Of a stretch of DNA of 43,926 bases, positions 4,824 through 41,080 are shown one piece after another (position 1 is the first letter of the stretch; each line of letters begins with the position of its first letter). Origin of the DNA: a virus; UHGV virus genome UHGV-0164981; one strand, written 5' to 3'. The translations under genes and the position numbers were made by a program. The notes beneath the pieces are model-generated. The model was not told where the DNA came from. It worked only from the letters and a program-made list of their open reading frames with translations, and ran no database searches.

Positions 4824-5381
4824 TTTTACGCTCTCCCCACATGCGATTGAGATACTTGTTCTTGTCCGGCCCAGGGAAACTGTTACGTTTCATCAGTTCC
4901 TCACGTGTCGGGAACGGTGTGTGACTGACTTTACGGCCTACTCGTAATGGTTGGCTTACTTGACCTTGTTCGCTCATCACTTAACCTCAACATAATCGGT
5001 AGTAAGGAATACAATTTCGCCGTTAACAATCAAAAGCGGTGTATCTTCGATGACGCTTTTAACCTCTACAAAATACCCACCGTAACTGTCGTCTATAAAC
5101 AGAACGTCTCCAGGTACTAAATCTGCGGCTAACTTGCTCATTTCTTCTCTCCTGCATAAGCTGCTTTCAGTGTCTGCATCGCGGCGAACCAGAACGCGTC
5201 CGCGGGAATGCTGTTGCTCAGGTTACTAACGGCGATTCGTGCCATCAGTTGTGCGTCTTTGAATGCTTCGATGTCTGTGATTTTCATTTCTCTCTACTCC
5301 GTTCTCGTTGTCGATGGAGTAAATATAATAGGGTCGAGGGTAATAGTCAACTAGTCATTGCAGAAAATAGATAAAAAAAAT

Positions 5382-9744: not shown

Positions 9745-9901
9745 TTTAAGTACCCGAGACTTAAGAATAATGTTTCTAAGTAATTCTGAACTAAGGCCCT
9801 TCGATACGTTGATTTTACAGCTACATTTTATTTTGTCAATAGGTTGTGTTTAGTTATTATAGGTGTTATAGTTGTTTAACTTGATAAAGAGGGCGTGTAA
9901 A

Positions 9902-13155: not shown

Positions 13156-13159
13156 CCCA

Positions 13160-13188
13160 TTGACATGTGAATAGTTCGCTATTATAGT
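13160..13188 (+). promoter_or_regulatory. class B promoter (TTGACA-17 nt-TATAGT) with GAATAG-N4-CTATT inverted repeat in the spacer
   Basis: TTGACA tgtgaatagttcgctat TATAGT; divergent from the XRE gene promoter. Confidence 0.6.
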
Positions 13189-13218
13189 TAGCCCATACCA
13201 AACGAGAGGAGAGACAAA

Positions 13219-23639: not shown

Positions 23640-23651
23640 ATAGAGTCCTCT

Positions 23652-26207
23652 TTAATTAAAACCATTGCTGAATCCGTCGGAGAAACCGCTGCCGTATGGC
23701 GCGACGCCGTCGTATTTATAGAATCCGTCGTCATAGTTGTAGCCCGTAATCTTGACCGTGCGGTCGTCGCCGGGGTCGATTGAAGAAACAACTATCTTCT
23801 GAGCATTATGCCTTGCTTCGTTGCCGAATGAAAACTCAGTTTTTAGTGCACTATTCCCCGTGTAGATTGCTTCCTCCGGCGCGGAGAGCATAATCACTTC
23901 GCGGTCATGGCTTCCTTCGATAACGGATATACTCTGCACGGAGCCGTCTCGCTTCTTGAGGATGATGGAGTGGTCATCGCCGGGGGTAAACGTAACAGGT
24001 TGCGATAGCGTCAGCGTAAGCCCATTAACGGCAACAATGTAGCCATCCTGCGGTGCAATACGGGAGCCTTTAACCACGCTGATTATGCCGCCGGGTGTGG
24101 CGAGAGCACCTTCTTCGGTAGCTTCGAACTCTACGACAACTTTACTTAACGCGTTGCGCTGGTAGCGACGCCACGCCAGCCAATATGCCTGCTGATAGTT
24201 ACGTACGCCCTTCGATTCATATTCCTCGGTGTTTGCTCCGAGTTCTTCCGGGATATAAATCGTTTCCTGTACGTTAGTATCCGGGTCGATGTATGAGAAC
24301 GACAGGCTATCGTAGGTTGTAGAATCGTTGAACGTGCGGGTCCATTTCTCCGTACCGGTAGTTTTGCTGCGGTGGGTGAACACCATTTCAGGCCCCGCAA
24401 CCGGACGATCGAATCGCAGCATAATATCCGCACCTTTACGGTACGCAGTACAGAACACGGCTTCCGCTATGGTCTGAACAATGTCCTGCATGGTTGTGTC
24501 GTAATCGTCGAACGTGTAGCAGAACTGACCTGCTAATTCGCTACCGAAATATGACTCAATCTCTTCCTGCACGGCGAGTAACTTGTCCATGTTTGCGGTT
24601 GTCAGTTCCAGATTGCCAACCACCGGGTCGCGCGCCAGTCGGATTAGCGACTGCACAGCCTGGGTATTTGGCGTCATTACTGTATCGAATACGCCGTTGC
24701 CTAAGTATTTGTAGCACATCTCGGTTGCAATCATGCGCAGTTCCGGGTTGTCGATACTGGCGGCCCGCGGCGTCTGTTTACGGGCGCAATGTACTGTTGT
24801 CCTGTTGCCGTAGTGCGGGGTTGTGTCCAGAGACTGCCCGTACAGGTTGATGAACGTTATCTCGTCGCTTACCGTTCCGTCGTAGTCCTTATCGAAATTC
24901 GTTATACGGCGCATACGGGCGCGGAAACGCGATGCAGTAGGCAACTGCCCATAAATGGATGTACCGACGTAATCCGTGCTATTACCGGTAATTGTGGCCT
25001 GTACCGTGTAAATACCGCTCAACGGGTTACGCTGAGAGTCAATCATCTGGTACTGGAGTTCTACGGTTACGCTGGTGCGGTTATAGCCGCCATCGTATTT
25101 GTAGAGGCCGTTCTGCCCGGCAACGTTAGCAAGCACACGGTCAACTTCCCCGCGCACCATGTAATACCAGTCGGTCAGGGATACGTCATAGGTGTTGCTC
25201 GGGCCAATAAACGTATCTGAACGCTCTGTTAGGGTGTACGTCTGCCCGCTGGTCAACGCCGCCCAGTTAGACGCTCCGTTTACCGCTAATCTAACTTCGA
25301 AGTCGTCGACATATAAAACTTCAAACGAGCCGTTCAGGTTAGTGACGTCCGCAACGTCAAAGTTGCTCAGCACCGCTACGTCGCCAACGCTAAGAAACTC
25401 AGAAAAAGCAGAGTCGCCTGACGGGTCATAAATGTAGCCGGTGTTTGAGATACGTTTGGCTGTGCCGTCGGCGCTTGGGTTAGCTCCGATGTCGTTTGGT
25501 GCTTTCAGTACGATACCGTCAACGTCGTCGTTGGAGTATGTCACATAGAGTTTCTGGTCAATGACGTCGCCGATTTGTAGCTGCGGCGATGCGGTGTTGT
25601 TCGGGGAAGTATACGGCGCATACACGGCTACAGAGGAGCCTGTGATGTCGCTTATCAGGGTGTCGCCTTCCGTTACGCCATCAGCCTCAATATGCAGATG
25701 CCCGCGCCCCGCGTCATAATACGAATACTCCAGCAAAGCACCCGTGGAGTTGAACGCTTTATACGTCTGCATCAGGTCGTTAGGGATTGTCTGCACAGTC
25801 CCGCAGATGTCATAGGAGCGCTCGTAAGGACGAGGCTTGTTGGAGCGATCTGTTAGGCTGTTATTCGGTGACGTTGTCTGATTGTTAGTCGCCGTGTAGT
25901 TGGCGTTTGCGGACATGTTCAGACCAAACAACTTGGCAATTGGCTTAAGGATAAAACCAAACACCTTACTAACCGCACCGAGCGCCCCGCTACCCGCACC
26001 CTCAATAATGTGGTACACGGCGTCTTCGTCTTTGAGCGCGTCGAAGTCGTCTGTCACATCAGTATCATCGCCAATCTCACCGAGGTAGACGCGCACAGGC
26101 ACGCCGTCCGGGATACGGTTAACGACAAACTCCATCGGCATCCCGACGTGTTTTGTACGGTCGAAAGCGCCGTCGGCGTTTCGCGTGTAGTGCAGGATTA
26201 TCGCCAA
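23652..26207 (-). CDS. tail fiber / host-specificity (central tail tip) protein
   Basis: 851-aa ORF between minor tail genes and tailspike; TTG start with GGAGAT RBS; Gly/Ser/Phe-rich C-terminus (GSGFSDGFSNGFN). Confidence 0.5.
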   Translation of the reverse strand: MAIILHYTRNADGAFDRTKHVGMPMEFVVNRIPDGVPVRVYLGEIGDDTDVTDDFDALKDEDAVYHIIEGAGSGALGAVSKVFGFILKPIAKLFGLNMSANANYTATNNQTTSPNNSLTDRSNKPRPYERSYDICGTVQTIPNDLMQTYKAFNSTGALLEYSYYDAGRGHLHIEADGVTEGDTLISDITGSSVAVYAPYTSPNNTASPQLQIGDVIDQKLYVTYSNDDVDGIVLKAPNDIGANPSADGTAKRISNTGYIYDPSGDSAFSEFLSVGDVAVLSNFDVADVTNLNGSFEVLYVDDFEVRLAVNGASNWAALTSGQTYTLTERSDTFIGPSNTYDVSLTDWYYMVRGEVDRVLANVAGQNGLYKYDGGYNRTSVTVELQYQMIDSQRNPLSGIYTVQATITGNSTDYVGTSIYGQLPTASRFRARMRRITNFDKDYDGTVSDEITFINLYGQSLDTTPHYGNRTTVHCARKQTPRAASIDNPELRMIATEMCYKYLGNGVFDTVMTPNTQAVQSLIRLARDPVVGNLELTTANMDKLLAVQEEIESYFGSELAGQFCYTFDDYDTTMQDIVQTIAEAVFCTAYRKGADIMLRFDRPVAGPEMVFTHRSKTTGTEKWTRTFNDSTTYDSLSFSYIDPDTNVQETIYIPEELGANTEEYESKGVRNYQQAYWLAWRRYQRNALSKVVVEFEATEEGALATPGGIISVVKGSRIAPQDGYIVAVNGLTLTLSQPVTFTPGDDHSIILKKRDGSVQSISVIEGSHDREVIMLSAPEEAIYTGNSALKTEFSFGNEARHNAQKIVVSSIDPGDDRTVKITGYNYDDGFYKYDGVAPYGSGFSDGFSNGFN

Positions 26208-26563
26208 AATTCAATCTCCGTGTACGTGTCTCTGAGGTCCGCCAGCCTGTCAAGCCGTACCTGACGTGACGCAAGCTCACAATGACTCACCATCCCGTCG
26301 AAGTAAACTCCCGCATGCCACACGATACGACCACCACGGCGATACCCCATAAGAACCGCGCAGAAGTTTTCAGGCGTATCAATTTTCGTAAGCCCCTTCG
26401 TGTCGCGGTGGCCTTCGTCAAACGCTTCGTTAATTGCCGTAGGGCTTGTAACGTCAAACGCCGGGGTCTCTAACCCGGCATCGGCCCGTACAATGCGTAC
26501 GTGATGCCAGCAATTGCGTTTGCGAAAGTCGTAAGGTATGCCCGTGTAGTCGTTAATATTCAT
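26198..26563 (-). CDS. putative tail assembly protein
   Basis: 121 aa with conserved Cys/His residues (NCWHH...HAGVYFDG...HCE); position equivalent to the small tail-tip assembly genes of siphophages. Confidence 0.35.
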   Translation of the reverse strand: MNINDYTGIPYDFRKRNCWHHVRIVRADAGLETPAFDVTSPTAINEAFDEGHRDTKGLTKIDTPENFCAVLMGYRRGGRIVWHAGVYFDGMVSHCELASRQVRLDRLADLRDTYTEIEFWR

Positions 26564-27075
26564 GTGGTCAACAGGCCGCGTAATAACGGTATCTCTTTAG
26601 GTGTCATCAGTATACCAGTGCTTCGTTGATTCAGCATAGGTGTACCGACATCTGCGGAGAACTCGCCCTTCTCCTGGTTGATGGCCTGCAACTCGTACAC
26701 GACCGGGCCGTCAGCCGGGTAAGACAGGTCGGTGCTGACGTAACGGCGGAAGACGAATTTCGGCAACTCGGTATTGCTCATCGGAATTTTATCCATCTCA
26801 TCATCCAGTTGATTGAGAATATCCGGTAAAGTAAACGTCGTCGTCTGGTCCATATCGCTATTATTAGCGGCCCCAGACGCTTCCATAGGGGTGGGTTCGA
26901 ACGTGATTATTTCGCCAGTCTCCAGTGTTGCCGTAAGTTCCTGTAACCCGCGCACAAGATAGTACGTCTTCGACAGCAACGGGTGGCTGATTTGCAACGT
27001 GATGTAATCCATCTCGCCGTCTGGATTTGAGGCCAGCTTACGGCGATAGGCTGCTTCTACTGATTCCTGGCTCAT
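26560..27075 (-). CDS. minor tail protein
   Basis: 171-aa ORF in the tail-tip block, overlapping neighbours. Confidence 0.4.
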   Translation of the reverse strand: MSQESVEAAYRRKLASNPDGEMDYITLQISHPLLSKTYYLVRGLQELTATLETGEIITFEPTPMEASGAANNSDMDQTTTFTLPDILNQLDDEMDKIPMSNTELPKFVFRRYVSTDLSYPADGPVVYELQAINQEKGEFSADVGTPMLNQRSTGILMTPKEIPLLRGLLTT

Positions 27076-27078
27076 AAG

Positions 27079-28479
27079 TTAACCGTCCACATTAAAATCA
27101 ATACGGGTGATATATTTACTACCCCACGCAGAATCGGCCTGAGGGATAGTCGCGTAATCATCTACAGCCTGAACGTTTACCACAGAGCCATCGGAATAGG
27201 TTATGTTGATGCTTGTCGCGCCATTCATGGTTACTTTCGCGGACGCTGTCGAGCGGGTGACAACAACGGCATCGGTTATTACCGGGGATGTTGTATTTTG
27301 GTTTACCTCTACAGTAGCCGCGGATAATTTAACCCCTGAAACGCCATCCCCCGTAAATGACCCGGTAACTCCGTCTGAATATATCCATGCGTCCATCCGT
27401 ATGCTCATTGTTTTATCTTCTGTTGCGGTAATCGTCTCCGATATTCGGAACCACCCTCCGCCTACGTCGGTTACATCTGTACCGCCTGGGCCGGAATAAA
27501 TGCTACCATCCCGCAAATCAACAACTGCTGAGCCTAATACTGTAGGAAGTTCTCGCACGTACATCCGTATGAAATTGTATCCGTTTGCTTTTGCGAAGAA
27601 ACTAAAAGTAACCATGTCGCCAACACCAACGCTAACATCTACAGTCTGGTTTATTAGGTGGTTACCGCTTGTGGCGGTAGCAGTTACGTCGTACGTGCCT
27701 GCGGCTGTTAAAACACCTGTTTCAGATACTGATACACTCACCAAACCTTTGTTCCAGTTTGACGAAGAGAAATTGCTTGAATATAGGAATCTGTTAGTTA
27801 CTGATGCCTCCGGTGGCACACGCCCAACTGCCGAGCCATCGATAAACGTAAGTGGCCATTCACCGGCGGCGGACTGCACAAGATTGCCGTTTCGGTTGAT
27901 GTAATAAACCTGCGGCCCGTCATACACAATGCGGCTATCAAGAGTCGACGCCAGAAGGTTAATCGGCGGGTATCCTGCAGGCCCTTCATTGCTCCAGATG
28001 CGCGGGAACGTCGTCTCGTAGTTCGCATATATTTTCAGGAAACTACCCAGACAGTCCCCGTAACAACCGTACAAATCCGGAAGATTGTTAATCAGGCACT
28101 GGTTCTCAAGGTCCTGGAACGGCGATTTCTCGGCGGTTGCCGTGAAAGTAATCGTCCAGTTAATGCCATCTTCGGTGGACTCAGCGATGGTGGACGTGAT
28201 TGTTACCTGGTAATCCTCAATACCCATGCCGAAGTCGTGCGCCATCCAGAAACTTGACGCACCGCCGTCTACTTTTTCTAGGAACGACAGAAATGCCTGC
28301 CGCCCCAGCGCCGATGTAATCAAGGTTACGCTCACCGGGAACACGTCGTAATATGTGTCGCGTCCCTGACGCACCCCGCCACCGGCTAAATCTACACTCC
28401 AGACGTTGTTGCGTCTGGTCATTGAGTAGCCTTTCGACACAATAGGCTTAAGGCTACGTGGGAAATATAAGTCGGTCAT
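27079..28479 (-). CDS. minor tail protein (distal tail / baseplate hub-like)
   Basis: 466-aa ORF immediately downstream of the tape measure gene (stop/start overlap). Confidence 0.45.
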   Translation of the reverse strand: MTDLYFPRSLKPIVSKGYSMTRRNNVWSVDLAGGGVRQGRDTYYDVFPVSVTLITSALGRQAFLSFLEKVDGGASSFWMAHDFGMGIEDYQVTITSTIAESTEDGINWTITFTATAEKSPFQDLENQCLINNLPDLYGCYGDCLGSFLKIYANYETTFPRIWSNEGPAGYPPINLLASTLDSRIVYDGPQVYYINRNGNLVQSAAGEWPLTFIDGSAVGRVPPEASVTNRFLYSSNFSSSNWNKGLVSVSVSETGVLTAAGTYDVTATATSGNHLINQTVDVSVGVGDMVTFSFFAKANGYNFIRMYVRELPTVLGSAVVDLRDGSIYSGPGGTDVTDVGGGWFRISETITATEDKTMSIRMDAWIYSDGVTGSFTGDGVSGVKLSAATVEVNQNTTSPVITDAVVVTRSTASAKVTMNGATSINITYSDGSVVNVQAVDDYATIPQADSAWGSKYITRIDFNVDG

Positions 28480-30752
28480 TATTTAAACCCCGGCGCGTTT
28501 CTTGTGGCCTTGCGGGCCTTGCTAATCTTACTGTTGCTGTTCTGCAAAGACGCGGCGACTTGCTCCTCTATGATGATACGCAGACGGCCTTCATCATCTT
28601 GTTCTGTGGATACGTTGCCGATTTGAGAACTTGTGTTGTTTACGATAGTAACATTAGACGGGCCGGAAGAAGACCCGTTTTGCCCCATAATTTCTTTCAT
28701 CTGCTGCGCGGTGCGCACGCGTGATGCACCAGCTGGCATGATAACTTCTGGTTTACCACGTTCTGCGATGGTGGAAGCCTGCCCCGCAGATAACTGACCG
28801 CCCTGTTCACGCGCGGACCGGATAGCGGAAACCTGCGCCATACCTGCACCAACGGCAGCGGCAGCGGCTACAGGGGCCAGGAACGGGCCAACTACAGGTA
28901 TAGCTGCCGTTGACTTGTACGCCTCAATAGCTGCGGTGTACGTGGCGATAGTGGCCTGTACGATAGCGAATGCCTTGTACGCGCCAGAAGCCTCACCCAA
29001 CGCAGACCCGATGTTTGAGGCCATGTTACCAAAGGCCGTTGCCGTTGCATCGGCACGTTTGGTTGCGTATTGCTCGTTGATGGCGTTAAGAGCGGCCTGA
29101 TACTGCTTCTCGCTAATCAAACCCTGCTCGCGGTACTTATCCGCTACCGCCAGTTTCTGCTGTTCCTGGATGTCGAGAAGCTCAAGCTCAGTAGCGTTCT
29201 GACCCATAATCTGAGCCATGAAGTCGTCACCTTTCTGCTGCTTTTCCTGGGCTTCTTTCTGGCGTTTATCCAGTTCATCTTGTCGTTTTTGCCCGGCTTC
29301 GAGGACGATAGCTGTTTTAGCTTGTTCATATTCTTTCAGGGACAACGCGCCCTGGCTGTAGAACTCTTTTGCCTTAGCCAGTTTCTGCTGTTCCTGCGCG
29401 TCGATAGCCTTTAACTCGTCGTTGTTCTGACGGGCCAAAGTGTCGAGGTAATCTTGCGCCTGATTCCGCAATTGCTCTGCTTTCTTGGCGGCGGCTTTTG
29501 CTGCTTTATCGTCGGTTGTCCCCACCCCACCAGTTCCGCCCTTTTTATTAACAAGGCTGGCTAAGTCAATTTCTTGCTTCTTACGCTCGTCGTACTGCTT
29601 GCGCTGTTCCTCAATTTCTTTCTTACGCTGTTTCGAGCGGTCAGTTATTGCCTGTGATTCTGCCTCCGCGCGTTTTATGCTAGCGGCGTACGCGGCGTCG
29701 GCCTCTGCGGTCAGGTTTTTAAATGTTAGCGCCGCCGTTTTGCTCGGGTCAAACACGTCGGCAAGGGTCTGCCCTAACGCTACAGCGTAATCGTCGATGC
29801 GCTGGAACCACGCAATAACCTCGTGAAATGTCTGCTGGATGTCCGGCAACCACTCACGGATAGCATCCGGTATAGTCCCCAGCGAGTCAGACATATCAAC
29901 GGATTTGTCCTCGGTATCGAATGCCAGGTCATTCAAGGCGTCGGAAATAAACTTGAATGACTCATTGAACAGCGCCACCCAATCCTGGAGCGTGGCGGCT
30001 ATCTCATTAGACGCGATGGCGTCGGTAAGCGCCGTGATAGCGTCTTCCGCTGTGGCCGCTTGCTCACCTACGGCGTCGCCAAAACCAGACTGCGCCACCG
30101 CAAGAACAAGACCGTCGAAGGAGTCGGCGAGGCTCGATAACTGGCCGTCTAGCGTCTTAGAGCGCGTCTCCATCGCCCCGGCAAAATCGGTGTTGCCGAT
30201 ATTCAGGAGGTATTTCTGAATCTCTTCGGAGTTCTTCTTAACCGTGGTCGTTACGCCGCGGAACGTGAACGAAACTGTATCTGCCTGTTGCGACGACTTG
30301 ATGCCGAACTCTTTTAAGCGCTCAAATTCAAATGTACTGGCGTCGGCAACTGCCTCAATCATCTGATTAAGGTCTTTACCCATAGCCGCCGCGGTGTTGC
30401 CGTAGGAGATTAACGCCTCTTTGCTGGGGTTCAGACCGAGCGCAACGAGCTTGGTAAACCCCTCTACCGCCTGATTGAGACCATACGGGGTCTCTTTTGC
30501 GAACTGTTGCAGGACGCTGAAAGCCTTAGCCGCGTTCTCGGCGCTCCCGGTCATCGTGATGAGGCCGGAGTTCAGCTTATCGAAGTTTCGCTGGGAATCC
30601 ACCAGCGCGCTGAACACCTGCTTAGCGGTTTCCAGACTGACAACGGCGGCGGCGGCGGCCCCCGCCGCCTTGGTAAGCCCGTTCAGTTGTGATGTGGTTT
30701 TATCGACGCCGGTCGATGATACTCGTACTATCAAGCTAGCGGTATCAGCCAT
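28479..30752 (-). CDS. tail tape measure protein
   Basis: About 757 aa from the ATG at 30752 (GAAGGT RBS); Ala/Gln/Glu/Lys-rich with long heptad-like stretches, Gly-rich segment (GGTGGVGTT) and position downstream of the chaperone pair. Confidence 0.7.
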   Translation of the reverse strand: MADTASLIVRVSSTGVDKTTSQLNGLTKAAGAAAAAVVSLETAKQVFSALVDSQRNFDKLNSGLITMTGSAENAAKAFSVLQQFAKETPYGLNQAVEGFTKLVALGLNPSKEALISYGNTAAAMGKDLNQMIEAVADASTFEFERLKEFGIKSSQQADTVSFTFRGVTTTVKKNSEEIQKYLLNIGNTDFAGAMETRSKTLDGQLSSLADSFDGLVLAVAQSGFGDAVGEQAATAEDAITALTDAIASNEIAATLQDWVALFNESFKFISDALNDLAFDTEDKSVDMSDSLGTIPDAIREWLPDIQQTFHEVIAWFQRIDDYAVALGQTLADVFDPSKTAALTFKNLTAEADAAYAASIKRAEAESQAITDRSKQRKKEIEEQRKQYDERKKQEIDLASLVNKKGGTGGVGTTDDKAAKAAAKKAEQLRNQAQDYLDTLARQNNDELKAIDAQEQQKLAKAKEFYSQGALSLKEYEQAKTAIVLEAGQKRQDELDKRQKEAQEKQQKGDDFMAQIMGQNATELELLDIQEQQKLAVADKYREQGLISEKQYQAALNAINEQYATKRADATATAFGNMASNIGSALGEASGAYKAFAIVQATIATYTAAIEAYKSTAAIPVVGPFLAPVAAAAAVGAGMAQVSAIRSAREQGGQLSAGQASTIAERGKPEVIMPAGASRVRTAQQMKEIMGQNGSSSGPSNVTIVNNTSSQIGNVSTEQDDEGRLRIIIEEQVAASLQNSNSKISKARKATRNAPGFK

Positions 30753-31077
30753 GATTTCTACCTTCAAATATTGCTTCTAAGCCCATGATAATGTCTATCT
30801 CGAACAGGCTAAGCTGTTTTTGCGTAACATCGAGATAGGCTTTCAGGTCTTGCCACGTAACAGATTCTCTTGCAAACAATACTACAGCGTCCTCGCGCAC
30901 GTGTCGCGTAAACTTAATGTCGCAATACGTCTCAAAGGTGGATATAAAAAGGGGCGGGCATTCTGGCCCACCCCGTCGCGCTGCACGTTTTTTCTTATCG
31001 ATTACACCCATCGCGATAAGCGCCTGTTCGTGTCCGTCGGCGATAGAATCAAACTCTCTGATTTTATGCTTATCCAC
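30745..31077 (-). CDS. tail assembly chaperone, downstream (T-like) frame, probably expressed as a frameshift fusion
   Basis: ORF has no ATG start in good context; its frame stays open upstream to about 31128 and overlaps the last 6 codons of the upstream chaperone ORF in the -1 frame. Confidence 0.45.
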   Translation of the reverse strand: MDKHKIREFDSIADGHEQALIAMGVIDKKKRAARRGGPECPPLFISTFETYCDIKFTRHVREDAVVLFARESVTWQDLKAYLDVTQKQLSLFEIDIIMGLEAIFEGRNHG

Positions 31078-31109
31078 AAACTCGTAGGTGGCGAACCTGT
31101 ACAGCGCGT

Positions 31110-31526
31110 CTACTTTTCCTGTAATGCTTTACGCTCGGCGTTATGGAACGCCGCCACCTGTGTACCTAATGCCTTGAATTGGTCGAGCAATTTGCTAAAC
31201 GCTTCCTTAGAGAAAGGCTCGTCAAAGCTCCAGCCGTTTACTACTTCTGCCGCAAGTTGCCGGTTGAGGTCTTCTGCCAGTTCGTTAACCGCCATGTTAT
31301 ATTCAGTATAATCACCAGAGTCTTTGGCAGCTTTTTCCAGTTCTTCAAAACGTGCCAGCCCGCGGCGGTACGCAATAATGAAAGCACGCCCCGCTTTAAC
31401 GGCGACATCCGCATCGGGACTTACAACGTTAAGCCATTCACCGGAGTCTTCGCCGTTTGGCAGCAGAATGGGCATCTTCTTGCCTACCAGTGCTTTCTCT
31501 TCGAAATAAAAATCAGAAAGTTTCAT
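31110..31526 (-). CDS. tail assembly chaperone (G-like)
   Basis: 138-aa acidic protein immediately upstream of the tape measure/chaperone pair; ends in GAA AAG TAG where a -1 shift enters the downstream ORF. Confidence 0.5.
   Translation of the reverse strand: MKLSDFYFEEKALVGKKMPILLPNGEDSGEWLNVVSPDADVAVKAGRAFIIAYRRGLARFEELEKAAKDSGDYTEYNMAVNELAEDLNRQLAAEVVNGWSFDEPFSKEAFSKLLDQFKALGTQVAAFHNAERKALQEK
31113..31120 (-). other. candidate -1 programmed ribosomal frameshift site (GAAAAG at the stop codon of the G-like chaperone)
   Basis: Minus-strand sequence ...CAG GAA AAG TAG...; slipping back one base at AAG gives AAA GTA GAC... which is the open frame of the 30745-31077 ORF. Confidence 0.4.
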
Positions 31527-31634
31527 TCTTTAATCCTTTGGTTAAGAGGTTACAGGTTAACGATAAATGCGCCAGACGGGAACCACCCGCTTTTCGTGTG
31601 CGACACTAGGCGCAAACTTATTCTATCACATTAC

Positions 31635-31663
31635 TTGCACACCCCAATATAATAGGGTACTAT
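31635..31663 (+). promoter_or_regulatory. class A promoter (TTGCAC-17 nt-TACTAT) driving the plus-strand cassette
   Basis: TTACTTGCAC accccaatataataggg TACTATTCACTTA; same element as at 9449-9480, 8350-8381 and 41133-41161. Confidence 0.6.
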
Positions 31664-31693
31664 TCACTTACACCAACAATGAAGGGGTTTAAA

Positions 31694-31885
31694 ATGTCCA
31701 GTTTACCAGTTTCCTTAATTCTGTTTGCACTGCTCGCTTATTTCGCGCCTTTCCTGGTTGCGTACTTCCGTAACCATAAAGCGAAGTTAGCGATATTCAT
31801 GGCTAATCTGTTTCTTGGTTGGGTTCTGCTGCCGTGGGTATTTATCTTAATCTGGGCGTGCAACTCGAATGTCAAAGAGAAGTGA
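31694..31885 (+). CDS. small two-TM membrane protein, superinfection-immunity-like
   Basis: About 63 aa from the second ATG (AAGGGG RBS): MSSLPVSLILFALLAYFAPFLVAYFRNHKAKLAIFMANLFLGWVLLPWVFILIWA; the YF.P..VA..R.H....I...N.FLGW pattern matches my recollection of the small Imm-type superinfection immunity family. Confidence 0.5.
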   Translation: MSSLPVSLILFALLAYFAPFLVAYFRNHKAKLAIFMANLFLGWVLLPWVFILIWACNSNVKEK

Positions 31886-31923
31886 GCTAGTATAGGACAA
31901 ATCCTAAACACGAGGAAGTAAGC

Positions 31924-33054
31924 ATGGCCCAGAAGAAAATAACCGACGAACAGTTACAGGAAGAATTGAACGCCGGGATGAAGAATGTAGACATCGCCCG
32001 TAAATACGGCATCTCAGACCGCGTTATTCGTATCCGTAAAGCGAAGCTGGCTAAGAAAGGCGTAGGTCACGGGCGAGACGTTAGTCACCTTGTGCCCGAT
32101 GGCTACAAGATTAAGGGTACATCGTCTCTGGTGGACGAGTTCGGCAACACTAAGTTGCAATGGGTTAAGACCGACACCGATGCCGAACGTCAGGTAGAGT
32201 TGATGAAAGCCGTAATCGAAGGAATGAAATCAGAGATTACGCCAGTCGCCCCTGTTAAAGCGGCACGCGCCAAACGTGACGATAAACTACTCAATCTTTA
32301 CACTGTGTCTGATTTTCATCTCGGTATGCTGGCATGGGCCGATGAGAGCGGCGACGACTGGGATATGAAGATTGCAGAAGACCTGTTCTCTCGATGGTTC
32401 GACGCGGCGTTTCAGAAAGCACCGGACGCGGGAACAGGAGTTATTAACCTTCTGGGCGACCTCGCTCACTTCGATAGTCTGGATGCAGTTACACCTGCAA
32501 GCGGGCATGTTCTTGATGCGGACACGCGCTATCAGAAACTTGTACGCTATATGATTCGGATGGTCCGCCGTGTCATTGATATGGCGCTGGTTAAGCATAA
32601 AAATGTTCGCTTGCTTATCGTGCAAGGGAACCACGACGAAAGCGGAATGATTTGGTTGGCTGAGATGTTCAGTACGCTGTATGACAACGAGCCGCGGGTG
32701 TTCGTCGATACGTCGCCGGATGTTTACAAGATGGTGCAACACGGCAAAACGACGCTGTTCTTTCATCACGGTCACAAAGCACGCTTCGACGCTATCGAAC
32801 CAGTTATGATTGCCAAGTTCCGCAAAGCGTTCGGCGAGAGTATTTACAGCTACGCCCACGTAGGCCATCTGCACCACCAGAAGATTGTAGAAAGCCGTAA
32901 CATGATTGTTGAGCAACACCGCACCTTAGCGGCTAAAGACGCCTACGCCTCTCGCGGCGGATGGATGTCGGGCCGCAGTGCAAATGTAATTACTTATAGC
33001 GCCGAATATGGCGAGGTCGCACGTTTAACTATTTCACCGGAGATGCTGGGATGA
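31924..33054 (+). CDS. HTH domain fused to calcineurin-like metallophosphoesterase (SbcD/Mre11-type motifs)
   Basis: 376 aa; N-terminal NVDIARKYGISDRVIRIRKAKL (HTH-like), then SDFHLG, GDLAHFD, QGNHDE, FFHHGH and GHLHHQ in the canonical order of binuclear metallophosphoesterase motifs. Confidence 0.7.
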   Translation: MAQKKITDEQLQEELNAGMKNVDIARKYGISDRVIRIRKAKLAKKGVGHGRDVSHLVPDGYKIKGTSSLVDEFGNTKLQWVKTDTDAERQVELMKAVIEGMKSEITPVAPVKAARAKRDDKLLNLYTVSDFHLGMLAWADESGDDWDMKIAEDLFSRWFDAAFQKAPDAGTGVINLLGDLAHFDSLDAVTPASGHVLDADTRYQKLVRYMIRMVRRVIDMALVKHKNVRLLIVQGNHDESGMIWLAEMFSTLYDNEPRVFVDTSPDVYKMVQHGKTTLFFHHGHKARFDAIEPVMIAKFRKAFGESIYSYAHVGHLHHQKIVESRNMIVEQHRTLAAKDAYASRGGWMSGRSANVITYSAEYGEVARLTISPEMLG

Positions 33055-33539
33055 AAGATATTGTAATTTTCGATTTAGACGGGACATTGGCCGACGGTAC
33101 CCATCGCTTACACCTGTTACCAAAAGATAACTACGGAGAAACGTGGGCGTGGAAGCCATTTAACATGGCCTGCAAAGATGACGCTCCGATATACGACAAT
33201 ATCCATTTGTGTAGCGTACTGTGGCATTCCGGACTTACTATAATTATCCTTACCGGGCGAAGTGATGACGCTGAGGAGGAGACTCGCGAATGGTTACGAG
33301 AGAATAACGTTAGGTTTGACACGCTAATCATGCGCAGCAAACACGACAACAGAAAAGACATCGTAATTAAAGAAGAGGTGTTGCGTGCTTTCGGACTGGA
33401 AAGAATCTTGTGTGCGTTCGACGACTCTCCAGCGGTAATAAAGCATTTCCGTGACCTCGGCATAACCGCACACGCAGTTACCGAATACGACTGTAACGGG
33501 AACTCTACACACTTAAAACCACACGGGAGCGATAAATAA
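33051..33539 (+). CDS. HAD-superfamily phosphatase (polynucleotide 3'-phosphatase / nucleotidase-like)
   Basis: 162 aa; motif I VIFDLDGTLA, motif II IILTGR, Lys-containing KHDNRKD, motif IV CAFDDS. Layout resembles the phosphatase half of T4 polynucleotide kinase as I recall it. ATGA overlap with the upstream gene. Confidence 0.7.
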   Translation: MKDIVIFDLDGTLADGTHRLHLLPKDNYGETWAWKPFNMACKDDAPIYDNIHLCSVLWHSGLTIIILTGRSDDAEEETREWLRENNVRFDTLIMRSKHDNRKDIVIKEEVLRAFGLERILCAFDDSPAVIKHFRDLGITAHAVTEYDCNGNSTHLKPHGSDK

Positions 33540-34093
33540 TGGCTAAGGTAATTATTCTTAATGGCCCTGCGGGTTGCGGGAAAGACACGCTTGCTATGGC
33601 GCTGGTAGAAATGGGCTTTGCGAAAGGAACTACCAGTTTCAAGAATCCAATGTTCAATATTGCTTTGGCAGCGTTAGGCCAGGATGCTTACCACGAATTT
33701 CTCGACGGCTACGACGACCGGGCGCGGAAAGAAAAACCCGAGGGTTTTCTTAATGGGTTGTCCCGCCGCCAGTTAATGATTGCCATTTCTGAGCAATTCA
33801 TTAAACCGGTATTCGGCGATGATTATTTCGGTAAGTATCTTGCTGAAAACTTGCCTGACGGCGACGAAGTTTTTGTAGTGTCCGACGGTGGATTCGCCAG
33901 TGAAGTTGCCCCTATCGTCGCCGCGGGGCATGACGTGCGAATCGTCCGCCTCCATCGTGACGGCTATACGTTCATCGGCGATAGCCGTGGCTATCTGTAC
34001 GATGTTAGTGGTGTAAAAGATTACGACACCTACATCATACCGGGTGACGTTAAATCGAACGTTATAGACATTGCTTTAAAATTAGGTTTGTAA
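33539..34093 (+). CDS. P-loop kinase (dNMP kinase-like / polynucleotide kinase-like)
   Basis: 184 aa; Walker A ILNGPAGCGKDT at the N-terminus (GKDT as in T4-type dNMP kinase), later Arg-rich lid-like segments; start overlaps the upstream stop (TAATG). Confidence 0.65.
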   Translation: MAKVIILNGPAGCGKDTLAMALVEMGFAKGTTSFKNPMFNIALAALGQDAYHEFLDGYDDRARKEKPEGFLNGLSRRQLMIAISEQFIKPVFGDDYFGKYLAENLPDGDEVFVVSDGGFASEVAPIVAAGHDVRIVRLHRDGYTFIGDSRGYLYDVSGVKDYDTYIIPGDVKSNVIDIALKLGL

Positions 34094-34096
34094 GAA

Positions 34097-34124
34097 AAAG
34101 GCCCCGAAAGGGGCCTTAGTTTTA
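34097..34124. terminator. bidirectional hairpin AAGGCCCC-GAAA-GGGGCCTT
   Basis: Perfect GC stem between the convergent kinase gene (+) and major tail gene (-), with A-run and T-run flanks. Confidence 0.65.
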
Positions 34125-35288
34125 TGCGTAGGTGATACGCTGGATAACAATAGACGACTGGTACTGGTTGCCAGTAGCCTGGCCTTCAATGGACTGAGTG
34201 ATTGACTCGGGTCCGCCAATCTCTGGTGTTACTGCTGTAAGCTCTGCGCGTTTCAAACTGAAAGACATCGCCCCGTTTACCCCAGCCAGAATAGAGTTAA
34301 TCTCTACCTGCTGTTCGTTGATAAACTTCTGGATCATCGCCATGTCGTACAGCTTGCCAGAGATAGAGAATGTGTTAGCTGCGCGTCCACGTTCGACGAA
34401 CGCCACGCTACTGTTACCGAGTTCGAACTGCGCGGAAGCTCCGTTGTCGTTGGTGATGGTGAGAGTATCGCAACGCAACGGCGTGGAGCCATCGAACACC
34501 GACACATCTACCGACGAGAACGGCTCATCGGTGAACGTAACCTGAGAGAAATCAGAGCCAGACGGCGGCGCGGTAAGAATCTCCTGACTCAGGCCGATGA
34601 ACGGGAAGCTGCCGGTGACCATGGCGTTAACCGCCTGCTCTACGGTAAAGCCAGAGATTTCCACACCTTTGGTCAGCATGTACGCGTCCGGGTTACCACA
34701 CTGGCCCTTGAACCACGTCAGGATGGAGAACGTCTTACACGCGTTACCGGTTTCCAGCTTGTCGCCAGTTTTTGCGTCAGTGGTTACTGTCTCTGCTGTC
34801 AGCGTGTGCTGAATACCTGCGCCCGTAACTACCAGAGCGGAAACCGCGGTCACGATAAACGGTTTTGCGTTGTCGCCGGTTAAGTCGGTGAACGCAATCA
34901 GGTCGCCAACTTCTACACCGTCAGTAATGAAGCTACCGGCAGCGCGGGTGAATGTTTTACCTGCTGGGGCGACCGTAATTTCGGCGCCAGTAATCTCTAC
35001 CCCAGCTTGCCACGTAGAAGTCATCGCTCCCGCAAGGAAATCATCCTGGCTACGAGAGCTAAGTTCGATGGCGTACTCCCCGCTAACCTGTTTGTTACCG
35101 GTTCGGATGGATGTAGTTTCACGGCTGCCGTCTAGTTCGTTGGAAGTCAGCGCATCGCGGGTTACGGCAGGAACACCGCCAGTGTTACGCAACGGCGACC
35201 AGACAGGGTTAGCCGGTGTTACGCCCGGGGTAGTTTCCGCCACATAGAATTGCGCGGTATTCGCGCCCTTAAAAGGAGTTGTAGCCAT
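34122..35288 (-). CDS. major tail protein (putative)
   Basis: About 388 aa from the ATG at about 35288 (AAGAGG RBS); track ORF begins at a GTG at 35294. Position between connector genes and chaperones. Confidence 0.5.
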   Translation of the reverse strand: MATTPFKGANTAQFYVAETTPGVTPANPVWSPLRNTGGVPAVTRDALTSNELDGSRETTSIRTGNKQVSGEYAIELSSRSQDDFLAGAMTSTWQAGVEITGAEITVAPAGKTFTRAAGSFITDGVEVGDLIAFTDLTGDNAKPFIVTAVSALVVTGAGIQHTLTAETVTTDAKTGDKLETGNACKTFSILTWFKGQCGNPDAYMLTKGVEISGFTVEQAVNAMVTGSFPFIGLSQEILTAPPSGSDFSQVTFTDEPFSSVDVSVFDGSTPLRCDTLTITNDNGASAQFELGNSSVAFVERGRAANTFSISGKLYDMAMIQKFINEQQVEINSILAGVNGAMSFSLKRAELTAVTPEIGGPESITQSIEGQATGNQYQSSIVIQRITYA

Positions 35289-35290
35289 AT

Positions 35291-35707
35291 TCACAGCCTC
35301 TTGGTGAATGCAATAAAGTTAATTGACAATGGTCTTTTGGCCCATCCGTTTTCTACAATCAGCGGCCCCAGGCTAACCGATTGAACCTCGGCGCAGATGT
35401 CGTTACGTGAAAATGACTTACCTGCTTTAAACGCCGTGTTAAGTAAGTCTGCCATTTTATTGATTGGCGCGCTACCTTTCACCGATGCGCAGTTAATGTC
35501 TACCTGATAAACACCTGAGCGTTGTTCAGTGAAGAACAAGTCTGCCTGTTCCGTATCTGCCAGCAACATGTAACTTGCCAGATACGGCGTATCGGTTGAC
35601 GTCGGCGCGTCGATGTTTTCAAGCGCGACCTTGATGCCGTTGGTTGTCCCGAAGGCTACCAGCGGCACGTCGAACGCTTTGGTTAAGTCCTCAAAGTAGC
35701 CCATCAT
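35291..35707 (-). CDS. tail/neck protein (tail terminator-like position)
   Basis: 138-aa ORF immediately upstream of the major tail gene; call by position. Confidence 0.35.
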   Translation of the reverse strand: MMGYFEDLTKAFDVPLVAFGTTNGIKVALENIDAPTSTDTPYLASYMLLADTEQADLFFTEQRSGVYQVDINCASVKGSAPINKMADLLNTAFKAGKSFSRNDICAEVQSVSLGPLIVENGWAKRPLSINFIAFTKRL

Positions 35708-36099
35708 TTCACCTTATTGGCTTCTTCATTAATTAGTTGCTGGAAGCGTGACACGTTAGTCCTGACCATGCCTTGCGGGGCCTGTTGCGACCAACCGTAC
35801 TCAAGAGGTTGGGCGTACGGCAGGTTATTAGTCAGCGTGAACTCGTGCCAGTCTGCGGCTTTCAGCACAAAACTAGTGGCGTTTCCTATTGCGATGTTAC
35901 CAGACTTGTCGGTAGCGTCTGTAGTTCCTGAAGCGGGGGTTCCTCCCGACGCCATCCAGTTCATACGAAAACGCCCTTTGTCTACCGGACTCGCCTTTAT
36001 AATAGCGGAAAACAGCTTGATAGACACCTGACGCATCACCGTTTCAGGATTCTTCTTCGCCTTCTCGACGAACTTAGAGACATCAAGCGCGAAACTCAT
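35704..36099 (-). CDS. head-tail connector / neck protein
   Basis: 131-aa ORF, ATGA-type overlap with neighbours; position between capsid and tail genes. Confidence 0.35.
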   Translation of the reverse strand: MSFALDVSKFVEKAKKNPETVMRQVSIKLFSAIIKASPVDKGRFRMNWMASGGTPASGTTDATDKSGNIAIGNATSFVLKAADWHEFTLTNNLPYAQPLEYGWSQQAPQGMVRTNVSRFQQLINEEANKVK

Positions 36100-36455
36100 T
36101 TTCTCACCTGAATGAAGTAGGCCACAACATCATCGTTAACCATCTTCTTCTCGATGGCTACTACTGACCATTGCTCGCCGCCGAATTGCACCTTGTCTTC
36201 CATTTTCGGAACGACGCTGTAATCGGCTTTAACAATCATGTCTCCGGCCTGAATGGTTGTACCGTTAACTAAACCTGCGTTAACCGGAACAGGCGCGGCT
36301 TTCAACGGCAGCACTTCATCCGCAGACCAGACGTATTCACCGAGAACCTCATCCCACACTTTCGAGCCAGCGCGAACCAGAGATACCGCGCTGCCGAATT
36401 TGGTTAGCAGGCGTGTACCCACGCCCTGCATACGTTTACTAAAGGCGGTGCTCAT
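36096..36455 (-). CDS. head-tail connector protein
   Basis: Track ORF 36096-36509; the internal ATG at about 36455 abuts the upstream stop, giving about 119 aa. Confidence 0.35.
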   Translation of the reverse strand: MSTAFSKRMQGVGTRLLTKFGSAVSLVRAGSKVWDEVLGEYVWSADEVLPLKAAPVPVNAGLVNGTTIQAGDMIVKADYSVVPKMEDKVQFGGEQWSVVAIEKKMVNDDVVAYFIQVRK

Positions 36456-37069
36456 TACGCAGCCTCCAGTCTCGAGATAACCAGTAACGCAGAAGGTGCT
36501 GTACCCCACGCGGTTACGGTCGCGGCCTGTGGGTATACACCGCCGAAGTTCGTCCCGGCACTGTCACGCATAATCTGAACGGCAAATGTTTGCCCGGCGG
36601 TTGGATTAATCACCACACGGGATTCAATAGGGATGGTGGTTTCCGCGCTAACCAGTTTCGTAGCTGCCGGTGAGCCGTATTGCGTGCCGTTAACCAGAAT
36701 GCGTGACAACAAGATAGACGTACCACTGGCTCCGGTGCGCCCGGCCTGTAACTTGATGCGAACGGCATAGTTACCGGCTGTGTTGAAAGTTACCAGACCT
36801 GCGGCGTTAATCATAACCGGGTCGGAGGCGCTACCTTGCGCGGCACCGAAGGTTAGCTGCAACGCGGTATCGACCGCGGACGGAGCCTGGACGACAGTAG
36901 ACGCAGCGCGAAGCACCTCAACCTCTTTCACGCCAGGAGTGGCATAAATAGGCGAGTCAGCCATTTGAGTGAGAACACCGCGTAACTTCTCCGGGGGGAT
37001 TAACCCGGTTGTGTTATCTGGCAATTCAGACCCGATTAGCGCAAATATCTCTGTTTTAGTCTTCGCCAT
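36455..37069 (-). CDS. virion structural protein
   Basis: 204-aa ORF in the head-tail joining block. Confidence 0.35.
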   Translation of the reverse strand: MAKTKTEIFALIGSELPDNTTGLIPPEKLRGVLTQMADSPIYATPGVKEVEVLRAASTVVQAPSAVDTALQLTFGAAQGSASDPVMINAAGLVTFNTAGNYAVRIKLQAGRTGASGTSILLSRILVNGTQYGSPAATKLVSAETTIPIESRVVINPTAGQTFAVQIMRDSAGTNFGGVYPQAATVTAWGTAPSALLVISRLEAA

Positions 37070-37071
37070 TT

Positions 37072-37584
37072 TTAACCCCGGTACACGTTAAACGAGAAGC
37101 CATTGTTAAGGCCGCCGCAAAGAAGCGGGCGCAAGGCATCATCCGCTGCGGTGATTGATGTAGTAGCGCCAGAGCTGCCGTTGTTGAAGTAGGTGACTGT
37201 TACCGCGCCCTCTACGCGCTCGGTCTGTACTGAACGCCCGTCTGAGTTGGCACGTACCTCTGTGCCAGAACCGTATGTTACAGAGGCGATTACCTGAGCA
37301 AGAATTACCTGCTTAGGAATTACATTATTAGCCACAGGGAAGCCGTTCAGCGTTACCCCGGTTCGCGGGTACGCCAGTGACTGCTCGGCGGACACACGGC
37401 GACCACACATCTGCGGTTCAGACAGGCCAACATAAGTAGCGCCGTTGCGCAGGGCCACCTCTGCGGCAGTATCGTCCGCAGGCAACTCCAGACCGTAATT
37501 AGCCGCTAACGCGCGGGCGTCAGCCAGACTAACGTAACTGTCAGCGTCAGGTACTATCGACCCGTCTTCCACGATTAGCGGCAT
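37072..37584 (-). CDS. virion structural protein
   Basis: 170-aa ORF in the head-tail joining block. Confidence 0.35.
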   Translation of the reverse strand: MPLIVEDGSIVPDADSYVSLADARALAANYGLELPADDTAAEVALRNGATYVGLSEPQMCGRRVSAEQSLAYPRTGVTLNGFPVANNVIPKQVILAQVIASVTYGSGTEVRANSDGRSVQTERVEGAVTVTYFNNGSSGATTSITAADDALRPLLCGGLNNGFSFNVYRG

Positions 37585-37803
37585 AAATTATTCCTCTGAC
37601 TTACGGCGACGACGCTTGGCACCACCGCCGTTGTTGTGCGCTTCTTCGTTGTCCGGTTGAGCTGCGACCAGTTCATCAGCTTCTACCACACCGCGAACAG
37701 GCATCACCTGACCGTCAACAACATCAACGTGGGTGTACTTTTCGCGGATTACATAATTATCTGCCATGGCCTTTCCTTATTACGGCCCCGAAGGGCCGTT
37801 GCA

Positions 37804-38157
37804 TTAAGATACAGTTACTACGGAGCTACTGGAGATAATATTACCATATACATCCTGAACAACCACTTTATACGTACCGGAATCGGTAGACGCGACGGTG
37901 GTTGATTTGGTGTACGTAGCTGCTGTAGCGCCTGCGATGGCGTTATTATCCTTGAACCACTGATAGGAATAAGGAGCCAGCCCACCGGTCGCCACAACGG
38001 TAAGGGTTAACGCGTTAGGTGCGGTAACCGCGGTAGTAGCCGCAAGCGGGGTAGAAAAAGATGCTGGTGAGATATTTGCCATGTCGATTTCAACCTGACC
38101 GTCGGCAGGAGAATCATCAGAAACACCGGTAATACGACGCTTGATTACATCAACCAT
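37804..38157 (-). CDS. Ig-like domain protein (possible capsid decoration)
   Basis: 117 aa; C-terminal APYSYQWFKDNNAIAGATAATYT...DSGTYKVVVQDVYGN fits an Ig-like beta-sandwich signature (Y.W.KD...Y.....D.G.Y.C/V). Confidence 0.5.
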   Translation of the reverse strand: MVDVIKRRITGVSDDSPADGQVEIDMANISPASFSTPLAATTAVTAPNALTLTVVATGGLAPYSYQWFKDNNAIAGATAATYTKSTTVASTDSGTYKVVVQDVYGNIISSSSVVTVS

Positions 38158-38168
38158 TTTTAATCTCC

Positions 38169-38423: not shown

Positions 38424-38440
38424 AATTTACCTCTTAGTAA

Positions 38441-38464
38441 AAGAAAAGGGGACCGAAGTCCCCT
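38441..38464 (-). terminator. hairpin GGGGAC-CGAA-GTCCCC with U-rich tail, right after the major capsid gene
   Basis: Read from sequence; a strong stem-loop immediately after the capsid gene is a common attenuator position. Confidence 0.55.
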
Positions 38465-38481
38465 TAGATTATACATACAAA

Positions 38482-40235: not shown

Positions 40236-40317
40236 AGTCAGTATGTCCCCTGGACGTTGGAATCCGGGCCTCCCGGATTTACATGTCAAGAATAAATTAT
40301 TCCAACATACAAGGCAA

Positions 40318-40855: not shown

Positions 40856-41064
40856 GCGCTAGTCCTTATCATTTAAACATAGAAACGGCGTAATCTCAGT
40901 AAACCAGTTACTTTTTACACAAGCAATAGAGTATGGCCCTTCCGAACGCGTCAGCGTAACTACACTCAGGACTTACGTCCCGCTCCGTTACCTGCCCGCG
41001 CCGCGGTCGCTTGTTCATACTTCACAAGCTCAGGTGGAGCTTATCATATTTTCAGTGAAAAGTC

Positions 41065-41080
41065 AACTATTCGAATAGTT
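41065..41080. promoter_or_regulatory. perfect 16-bp palindrome AACTATTCGAATAGTT (candidate operator)
   Basis: Read directly; uses the same CTATTC/GAATAG half-sites as the spacer repeats of the class B promoters. Confidence 0.5.

Follow-up and report, generated by a model that had tools for sequence, protein, structure and literature searches.

A recurrent AATAG-N4-CTATT dyad in promoter-like elements of a Kagunavirus genome and its candidate binding protein

The virus genome UHGV-0164981, analysed here over its full 43,926 nt (the window), carries near-identical promoter-like elements ahead of genes in separate and oppositely oriented regions, among them the element at 31,635-31,663, raising the question of what such a dispersed family does. 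The window corresponds to a complete or near-complete Kagunavirus genome (Guernseyvirinae, K1G/K1H-like), with ~93% identity to phages K1ind, K1G and K1H and an orientation reversed relative to the K1H record. These elements, termed class A, are most likely promoters for the host sigma-70 RNA polymerase, as judged from their sequence and position, and they share with other promoters of the genome a dyad, AATAG-N4-CTATT, that is probably an operator for a phage-encoded dimeric helix-turn-helix protein. On balance, we favour as its binder the 71-aa XRE protein of the phage, which resembles 434 Cro and would act on promoters of the host type.

Class A elements as candidate promoters

Four full class A copies were identified, at 31634-31667 and 41132-41165 on the plus strand and at 9481-9448 and 8382-8349 on the minus strand, each following the pattern CTTGCAC-N10-AATAGGnTACTATTCA and lying just 5' of a co-oriented gene, with 25-35 nt between the element and the ribosome-binding site and start codon. 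Pairwise identity among the copies ranges from 23 to 33 of 34 nt, and 9445-9481 together with 31634-31670 forms the longest inverted repeat of the window (37 nt, 97%). A position weight matrix built from relatives only recovered exactly these four copies at 41-60 bits, where the best of 20 shuffles scored below 5 bits; likewise, AATAGGNTACTATTCA at up to three mismatches matched the window nine times, versus 0.75 expected. A previous sequence-only reading had reported a family of five. The coordinates of all reported copies proved correct on checking, and four copies are full members, whereas the fifth (13126-13139) shares only the -10/palindrome portion, AATATGGTACTATTCA, and lacks TTGCAC. 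The partial copy ATAATAGGGT reported at 5325-5334 is real, but it belongs to another promoter, whose -10 region it forms on the minus strand (TTGACT-17-TATATT, 5350..5322).

The class A layout, TTGCAC-N10-AATAGGnTACTATT, places the -10 hexamer TACTAT within the dyad, which extends from about -19 to -6. Across 72 class A instances TACTATTCAnTTA is conserved, its conserved TTA predicting a transcription start at the A seven bases past the -10. Compared with the sigma-70 consensus, TTGCAC-17-TACTAT matches at 7 of 12 positions, including A2 and T6 of the -10, and the spacing is optimal. A promoter must also exist at both plus-strand cassettes, because the genes upstream of each lie on the other strand. 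The proposal that a correctly oriented promoter-like family precedes the leftward small-gene block and both plus-strand cassettes was thus upheld. Nothing in the sequence supports the accompanying claim that the cassettes are expressed immediately after infection: the leftward class A units extend into the holin and endolysin genes and, given the partial consensus match, class A is not obviously a strong constitutive early promoter.

Three simpler readings of the element were set aside. The hexamers alone (TTGCAC-N17-TACTAT, up to three mismatches) matched the window 29 times versus 33 expected, and this lack of enrichment led us to reject bare hexamers as the signal in favour of the whole element, above all its palindrome. 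A TATAAT within the class A spacer was rejected as the true -10, as the other copies lack a conserved -35 17 nt upstream of it. Finally, bidirectional activity was rejected, a fair reverse match being present only at 9441-9469 (TCGATA-17-TATATT) and lost in K1H where homology breaks.

The dyad across promoter classes

Among all 5-Nk-5 palindromes, AATAG-N4-CTATT is the most over-represented in the window, with seven exact copies versus 0.03 expected; it also ranks first in K1H and phiEc3 (seven exact copies each, versus 0.03 expected) and leads in Jersey. Allowing one mismatch, the window contains 11 sites (seven perfect and four with a single mismatch) versus 0.76 expected. A search of the genome and its relatives found the motif in relatives and showed that it is not equally common in coding DNA: all 11 sites occupy promoter-like positions, 10 of them non-coding and the eleventh within the last 22 nt of a gene. 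The sequence-only reading, in confining the motif to class A, had described a real family too narrowly, as the dyad also occurs in three replication promoters, in two promoters where it overlaps the -35 and at a site following the portal gene (Table 1).

The three replication promoters, termed class B, are near-consensus plus-strand promoters (TTGACA-N4-AATAG-N4-CTATT-ATAGT; 10-11 of 12 positions matching sigma-70), and their Jersey orthologues carry host-promoter annotation in GenBank. Here the dyad extends from about -25 to -12, which places both arms in the spacer, whose bases sigma-70 does not read; the flanks of the dyad are oriented opposite to those of class A relative to transcription. 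The -35 region of the first, 13159..13189, overlaps a candidate XRE promoter; the second precedes a 210-aa gene (15871-16503) syntenic with a K1H gene whose annotation there reads 'DUF2815 family protein'. In the two class C promoters, both on the minus strand, a one-mismatch dyad (5355-5342 and 41071-41058) covers the -35 hexamer TTGACT. The promoter at 5322..5355 additionally carries an orphan half-site, CCCTATTAT, at its -10 and is preceded on the minus strand by a terminator. The promoter at 41038..41071 stands back to back with class A promoter 2, faces minus-strand genes from 40813 downward, and corresponds to host promoter HP1 in the fBC-Eco01 listing (PMC9825357). As a separate observation, the site at 5342-5355 (ACTAG-TTGA-CTATT) lies two bases from the E. 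coli trp operator core, ACTAGTTAACTAGT, a likeness that is probably coincidental.

The position of the dyad relative to the polymerase hexamers varies. In class A, 10 nt separate the -35 from the dyad; in class B the gap is 4 nt, in class C the dyad overlaps the -35, and a gap of 7 nt is seen both at the Jersey promoter orthologous to that at 31651 and at the early-type promoters of lineages L052, L056 and L067. Such variability of register suggests that the dyad is a module separate from the promoter, i.e. an operator. Over 89 instances from 39 Kagunavirus genomes, a set chosen for matching arms in which arm constancy is partly built in, the arms are near-constant and the central N4 takes 17 forms. 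In query-anchored alignments of the 15783 site, which involve no arm selection, the arms are again conserved, whereas nearly every relative has substitutions at two bases of the centre. Together, the enrichment and the several registers agree with the proposal of the sequence-only reading that the -10 is embedded in a near-palindrome behaving like an operator, and point to the dyad as probably the target of a dimeric helix-turn-helix protein encoded by the phage. A cruciform or RNA structure was rejected by reasoning only, the 5-bp arms being too short and the dyad lying 5' of the predicted start.

Alternatively, class A and its relatives might be plain promoters without an operator, their core inherited and spread by duplication or gene conversion and the palindrome incidental to an AT-rich, -10-like sequence. 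Three class A copies do share spacer bases, ACACCCCAAYAT, needed by neither sigma-70 nor a 14-bp operator, the 37-nt repeat resembles recent homogenisation, and a repeat finder assigned the reverse complement of the class A copy at 9441-9470, the three class B promoters and the XRE-proximal site to a single direct-repeat family. Copying, however, would not shift a dyad to three or four registers or invert it relative to the -35; the centre and flanks diverge freely while both arms stay fixed, and in other lineages the corresponding places hold cores that differ in sequence yet retain dyad symmetry. We therefore regard plain promoters as an improbable account of the family.

The motif itself is not new, being already present in three genome papers. 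A 20-mer detected by PHIRE (TGAATAGTAcCCTATTATaT / TAATAGGGTACTATTCA), under the label 'phage-specific promoter/regulatory element', is listed for the Kagunavirus phages Golestan (PMC7203180) and fBC-Eco01 (PMC9825357), where each genome has seven copies at orthologous positions, and also for Jerseyvirus SGP-C (PMC8790156). All three papers list the motif only, with no promoter classes, dyad, variable register or link to XRE (PMC7203180, PMC9825357, PMC8790156). The fBC-Eco01 paper calls it a 'phage RNAP promoter' (PMC9825357), and one could accordingly envisage promoters for a phage-encoded RNA polymerase, or else loading sites for a Q/AlpA-type antiterminator, given that the binding elements of AlpA and Q lie in the interval from -35 to -10, which also holds the class B dyad. 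The first of these was rejected: no RNA polymerase domain was detected in the 10 large open reading frames tested, three large frames without a Pfam match lying in the tail module, and on this basis the published label cannot be right. So was the second, as the 'AlpA-like' protein of the window has 59 aa, whereas P. aeruginosa AlpA contacts DNA through residues 128-142, behind an N-terminal ring domain; moreover, no -10-like pause element was apparent by eye just past the predicted starts, where no formal scan was made. Of the explanations considered, this one appears the least credible.

Table 1. Promoter-like elements, dyads, candidate regulators, terminators and gene blocks of the window. 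Transcription starts are predicted.
Feature	Position	Strand	Details
Class A promoter 1	31634-31670	+	-35 TTGCAC 31635-31640; 17-nt spacer; dyad AATAGGGTACTATT 31651-31664; -10 TACTAT 31658-31663; predicted +1, A at 31670; ahead of Imm (31694-31885), exonuclease, PNK, kinase
Class A promoter 2	41132-41168	+	-35 TTGCGC 41133-41138; dyad 41149-41162; -10 41156-41161; predicted +1 41168; ahead of 173-aa cargo gene 41189-41710
Class A promoter 3	9445-9481	-	-35 9480-9475; dyad 9464-9451; -10 9457-9452; predicted +1 9445; ahead of leftward small-gene block
Class A promoter 4	8346-8382	-	-35 8381-8376; dyad 8365-8352; -10 8358-8353; predicted +1 8346
Class B promoter	13159-13189	+	TTGACA-17-TATAGT; perfect dyad 13170-13183 in spacer; ahead of gene 13219 onward, divergent from XRE
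Class B promoter	15782-15812	+	TTGACA-17-TATAGT; dyad 15793-15806; 5' of 210-aa gene 15871-16503
Class B promoter	19345-19375	+	TTGACG-17-TATAGT; dyad 19356-19369; in last codons of gene 19093-19377; 5' of gene 19408 and helicase
Class C promoter	5322-5355	-	TTGACT (5350-5345)-17-TATATT (5327-5322); dyad ACTAG-TTGA-CTATT (5355-5342); 27 orthologous instances
Class C promoter	41038-41071	-	TTGACT (41066-41061)-17-TAAGCT; dyad AATAG-TTGA-CTTTT (41071-41058)
One-mismatch dyad AATATGGTACTATT	13126-13139	-	30 nt 5' of XRE start codon; class A-type -10 and discriminator, no TTGCAC
One-mismatch dyad TATAGTATGCTATT	38-51	-	Directly after portal-gene terminator; conserved in K1H, phiEc3, Golestan
XRE/HTH_3 protein, 71 aa, candidate operator-binding repressor	12880-13095	-	Synteny + Pfam; PF01381, E=2.3e-12, residues 11-65
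HTH_17 (excisionase-like) protein, 59 aa, alternative candidate regulator	9902-10081	+	Pfam HTH_17
Bidirectional terminator	34096-34118		Closes Imm-exonuclease-PNK-kinase cassette
Bidirectional terminator	41704-41738		Closes 173-aa cargo cassette
Portal, terminase, lysis genes, many small open reading frames	82-9426	-	Synteny + Pfam
HTH_17 protein and helicase-primase	9902-12866	+	Synteny + Pfam
Replication genes	13219-21154	+	Synteny + Pfam
Tail genes	21186-31526	-	Synteny + Pfam
Imm, exonuclease, PNK, kinase	31694-34093	+	Synteny + Pfam
Tail and head genes	34122-40813	-	Synteny + Pfam
173-aa cargo gene	41189-41710	+	Synteny + Pfam
Head genes	41739 to window end	-	Synteny + Pfam

The XRE protein as candidate binder

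Both regulator genes named in the sequence-only reading exist and gave Pfam matches to HTH_3 and HTH_17, respectively. The best PDB matches of the XRE protein are 434 Cro, also of 71 aa, and the DNA-binding domain of 434 repressor (E ~1e-5); together with the Pfam match, these establish its fold. Within the 123-bp divergent region between the XRE start and gene 13219 lie two dyads 44 bp apart: 13170-13183, within the class B promoter of the divergent gene and overlapping a candidate XRE -35, and 13126-13139, at the XRE -10/start. In 434, each operator is a 14-bp 5-N4-5 dyad whose outer bases are conserved and whose central 4 bp vary, a geometry that the present dyads share. We consider it somewhat better than an even prospect that the dyads are bound by this XRE protein. 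In the mechanism that we infer from sequence, as regards promoter activity, protein binding, sign of regulation and timing alike, the host sigma-70 RNA polymerase would read class A through TTGCAC, the 17-bp spacer and TACTAT and start at the A seven bases on. As XRE accumulates it would occupy the dyads and exclude RNA polymerase, thereby turning down the dyad-bearing promoters together with its own. Two variable cargo slots, each ended by a bidirectional terminator, would moreover have the promoter-plus-operator unit as their constant 5' boundary.

To compare related phages, an XRE alignment was used to fetch 80 viral loci, among which dyads were judged in hand-checked lineages only; an automatic search for XRE-proximal dyads over the 80 loci was swamped by GC-rich chance palindromes in distant phages. 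The XRE homologue and the syntenic divergent region are kept in every Guernseyvirinae-like lineage sampled, and in lineages whose XRE has diverged, the same promoter positions are occupied by other dyads. AATAG-N4-CTATT is present in Kagunavirus, L041 and Jerseyvirus. In L056 both arms are changed symmetrically (AATAC-N4-GTATT; four sites versus 0.3 expected) and L067 and L074 carry TTAGC-N2-GCTAA (five sites in L067 versus 0.45 expected), shuffle statistics that are optimistic for lineage-specific dyads chosen after the fact. Cornellvirus VSiP possesses an ATTAn-N4-nTAAT-like dyad, and the more distant L072, L076 and L082 have their own dyads beside the XRE gene. 

Other features of these relatives were also noted. 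An extra dyad site, GTCAATAGgTTACTATTT, absent from the window, occurs in the leftward small-gene region of L007 (at 13351), L009, L010, L017, L026, L027 and L033. At ~5585-5615 of Jersey (L003), a perfect 10-N4-10 palindrome, AATGGTATAT-ATAG-ATATACCATT, precedes the cargo gene Jersey_05 in the slot matching the 41189 cassette of the window, which suggests a different operator at that slot. In VSiP (L004; 34477-37128) the helicase-primase gene lies downstream of XRE on the same strand, whereas in Kagunavirus and Jerseyvirus the two are convergent on opposite strands, indicating that the module has been inverted between genera.

The operator-bearing promoters might instead be bound by the 59-aa HTH_17 protein, by another small phage protein or by a host factor, any of which might activate the weak class A promoters rather than repress them. 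Kagunavirus, L041 and Jersey all have an HTH_17 homologue alongside the exact AATAG-N4-CTATT core, while the XRE recognition helices differ between these genera, and the poor consensus match of class A would suit an activator. By tblastn, however, HTH_17 homologues were found only in Jersey and L041; Otaku, L052 and L056, for which this search gave none, retain AATA-N6-TATT dyads all the same. The promoter region of the HTH_17 gene itself lacks the dyad, whereas the XRE gene has two. Proteins of the HTH_17/excisionase type, in addition, usually bind direct repeats as monomers, which counts against HTH_17 at a 5-N4-5 dyad. For an activator other than XRE, a dyad centred near -12.5 is at no known activator position, and a host factor is argued against by dyads that differ between phages of the same host, Jerseyvirus and Cornellvirus both infecting Salmonella. 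A binder other than XRE thus seems unlikely, if the strongest of the alternatives that we weighed.

Several observations nonetheless weigh against XRE-bound, host-type promoters. The class A match to sigma-70 falls under the 9/12 threshold of the promoter scanner. The XRE proteins of Kagunavirus and Jerseyvirus are 48% identical and differ in their recognition helices (SQGAINQL versus SQSLITHL), yet these phages share the same dyad core, and the sites of Otaku and VSiP are poorly symmetric. Kagunavirus genomes, at more than 90% alike, are too similar for independent footprinting, little being visible beyond the variable N4. A repressor that also shuts units running into lysis genes would be awkward for a lytic cycle, and a literature search found no transcription or binding data, nor other experimental work on transcription, for any member of the subfamily.

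Operator quality differs among the promoters. The dyads of class A and class B are perfect, whereas the XRE promoter, class C and the post-portal site have conserved dyads with one mismatch, a distribution which could give graded shut-off. Extending this idea, it is conceivable, though we think it doubtful, that nearly all promoters of a 'strictly virulent' phage are governed by one Cro-like protein by way of a single dyad set in differing registers, with operator quality encoding the programme. Perfect dyads would then serve class A and the replication promoters, and one-mismatch dyads the regulator's own promoter and those facing packaging and head genes. Jerseyvirus SGP-C is reported to form turbid plaques and to yield immune, possibly episomal lysogens, for which its authors speculate that the XRE and HTH_17 genes form a switch (PMC8790156). 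If true, a genome-wide brake of this kind could silence the whole genome and so explain the 'lysogens' of SGP-C (PMC8790156), which would matter for therapy phages.

Phages of the Guernseyvirinae (Kagunavirus, Jerseyvirus) rank among those isolated most frequently on E. coli and Salmonella, and have been proposed for therapy and as synthetic-biology chassis; the BASEL paper mentions a synthetic Kagunavirus chassis. Should the dyad prove to be the XRE operator, the regulatory wiring of about 11 promoters would become readable from sequence, and the published 'phage RNA polymerase promoter' label would be corrected. Expression could also be engineered by changing the dyad or supplying XRE in trans, and turbid plaques and immunity in a supposedly virulent group would gain a candidate mechanism.

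Cassettes, neighbouring features and known systems

Both plus-strand cassettes begin with a class A promoter and end in a bidirectional terminator of a repeated family. The first gene of the 31694 cassette, Imm, encodes a superinfection-immunity protein (PF14373). The 173-aa cargo gene of the other cassette belongs to phrog_3007, with ~23 phage records at 80% identity or more, and has the characteristics of a moron: it lies between class A promoter 2 and the terminator at 41704-41738, on the strand opposite to its neighbours, and is patchily distributed among relatives. Other cargo occupies the 41189 slot in K1H, phiEc3 and Jersey, and K1H differs in both slots. Homology between K1H and the window stops 1-3 nt past CTATT(C)A at both cassettes, and that of phiEc3 stops after the ribosome-binding site at the 41149 slot. 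As promoter and terminator are shared while the cargo differs, we view them as backbone 'sockets' between which cargo is exchanged, and which mark where accessory genes are replaced.

These homology breaks, the variable cargo and the repeated terminators might be taken to indicate a primarily recombinational role, in which the 35-bp units are homology anchors for swapping cargo between phages or slots, as in the promoter-early stem-loop cassettes of T4-type phages. Yet 35 bp offers little length for efficient homologous exchange, genes preceded by class B and class C sites are found in all relatives examined, and the symmetry of the dyad and its presence at the XRE gene would both go unexplained. 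A recombinational function is very improbable as the primary one; as a side effect it is compatible with operator-bearing promoters and is no true rival to them.

The terminators themselves form a family of near-identical hairpins, AAAAGGCCCC-N4-GGGGCCTTA, at 52-74, 16512-16546, 21157-21179, 34096-34118 and 41704-41738. Three of the five copies stand at coding-strand switches, and two (34098-34117 and 41715-41735) score on both strands. Along with the promoter classes, this family makes up a set of standard regulatory parts.

The gene blocks of the window, assigned by synteny and Pfam (Table 1), leave ~9% of it non-coding (coding fraction 0.91). Neither an integrase nor a CI-like repressor with a C-terminal domain was seen in the window's gene content, and no Rfam family matched the window. 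Outside the dyads, a 445-bp non-coding stretch (9427-9871) was noted between a leftward class A promoter and the rightward HTH_17/helicase-primase operon. This region contains several hairpins without an Rfam match, as well as back-to-back near-consensus sigma-70 sites lacking the dyad (TTGACA-16-TAAAAT at 9839..9812 on the minus strand; TTGTCA-16-TATTAT at 9833..9860 on the plus strand), and could be an origin or a leader RNA. A GC-rich 28-nt hairpin, TAGCGCCCCGCTTTAGGGCGGGGCTTTA, occurs as inverted copies (96%) at 9721-9748 and 40834-40861, each in an intergenic region that also carries a class A promoter. Elsewhere, a 24-nt direct repeat (96%; GTrACAGAGGAGGATTTGGAATGA) at 12649-12672 and 15585-15608 covers a ribosome-binding site and an ATG overlapping the stop codon of the preceding gene. 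Each copy is located at the 3' end of a plus-strand gene (10405-12672 and 14367-15608, respectively), so that the translational-coupling junction is duplicated.

Among known systems, the proposed mechanism follows the ordinary 434 Cro scheme of repressor, operator and promoter, and is unusual only in its spread over nearly all promoters and its variable registers. Like the 434 regulators, the XRE protein is a single-domain HTH_3 protein of ~70 aa, with 434 Cro as its best solved-structure match; like the OR and OL operators of 434, the dyads are of 14 bp with conserved outer bases and a variable 4-bp centre, overlap sigma-70 promoter elements, and lie in a divergent region beside the regulator gene. 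In contrast to 434, two sites 44 bp apart stand at XRE, with no OR1-3 array, CI partner or integrase, the dyads, instead of being confined to two control regions, are dispersed among about 11 promoters of a virulent-type genome, and the half-site is AATAG rather than ACAAn.

A single phage repressor acting at many sites for global silencing, as proposed here, also recalls mycobacteriophage L5, in which gp71 binds stoperators. These are asymmetric, orientation-dependent 13-mers situated mostly inside transcription units, where they stop elongation, whereas the present sites are dyads inside core promoters. Lambdoid morons, as in HK97 and HK022, are genes with their own promoter and terminator that lie in opposite orientation within a late operon and occur in only some relatives. 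The 41189 cassette shares its own promoter and terminator, opposite strand and patchy presence with these morons, but here promoter and terminator are conserved backbone, the promoter belongs to a genome-wide standard family instead of having come in with the gene, and it is the cargo that changes. Finally, protein p4 of phi29 is a small DNA-binding protein of a virulent phage that turns early host-polymerase promoters down and also activates a late promoter. The resemblance lies in a small protein of a virulent phage acting, as we propose for XRE, at sites overlapping host-polymerase promoters; p4 differs in its unrelated fold and site, its additional role as a late activator and its single control region.

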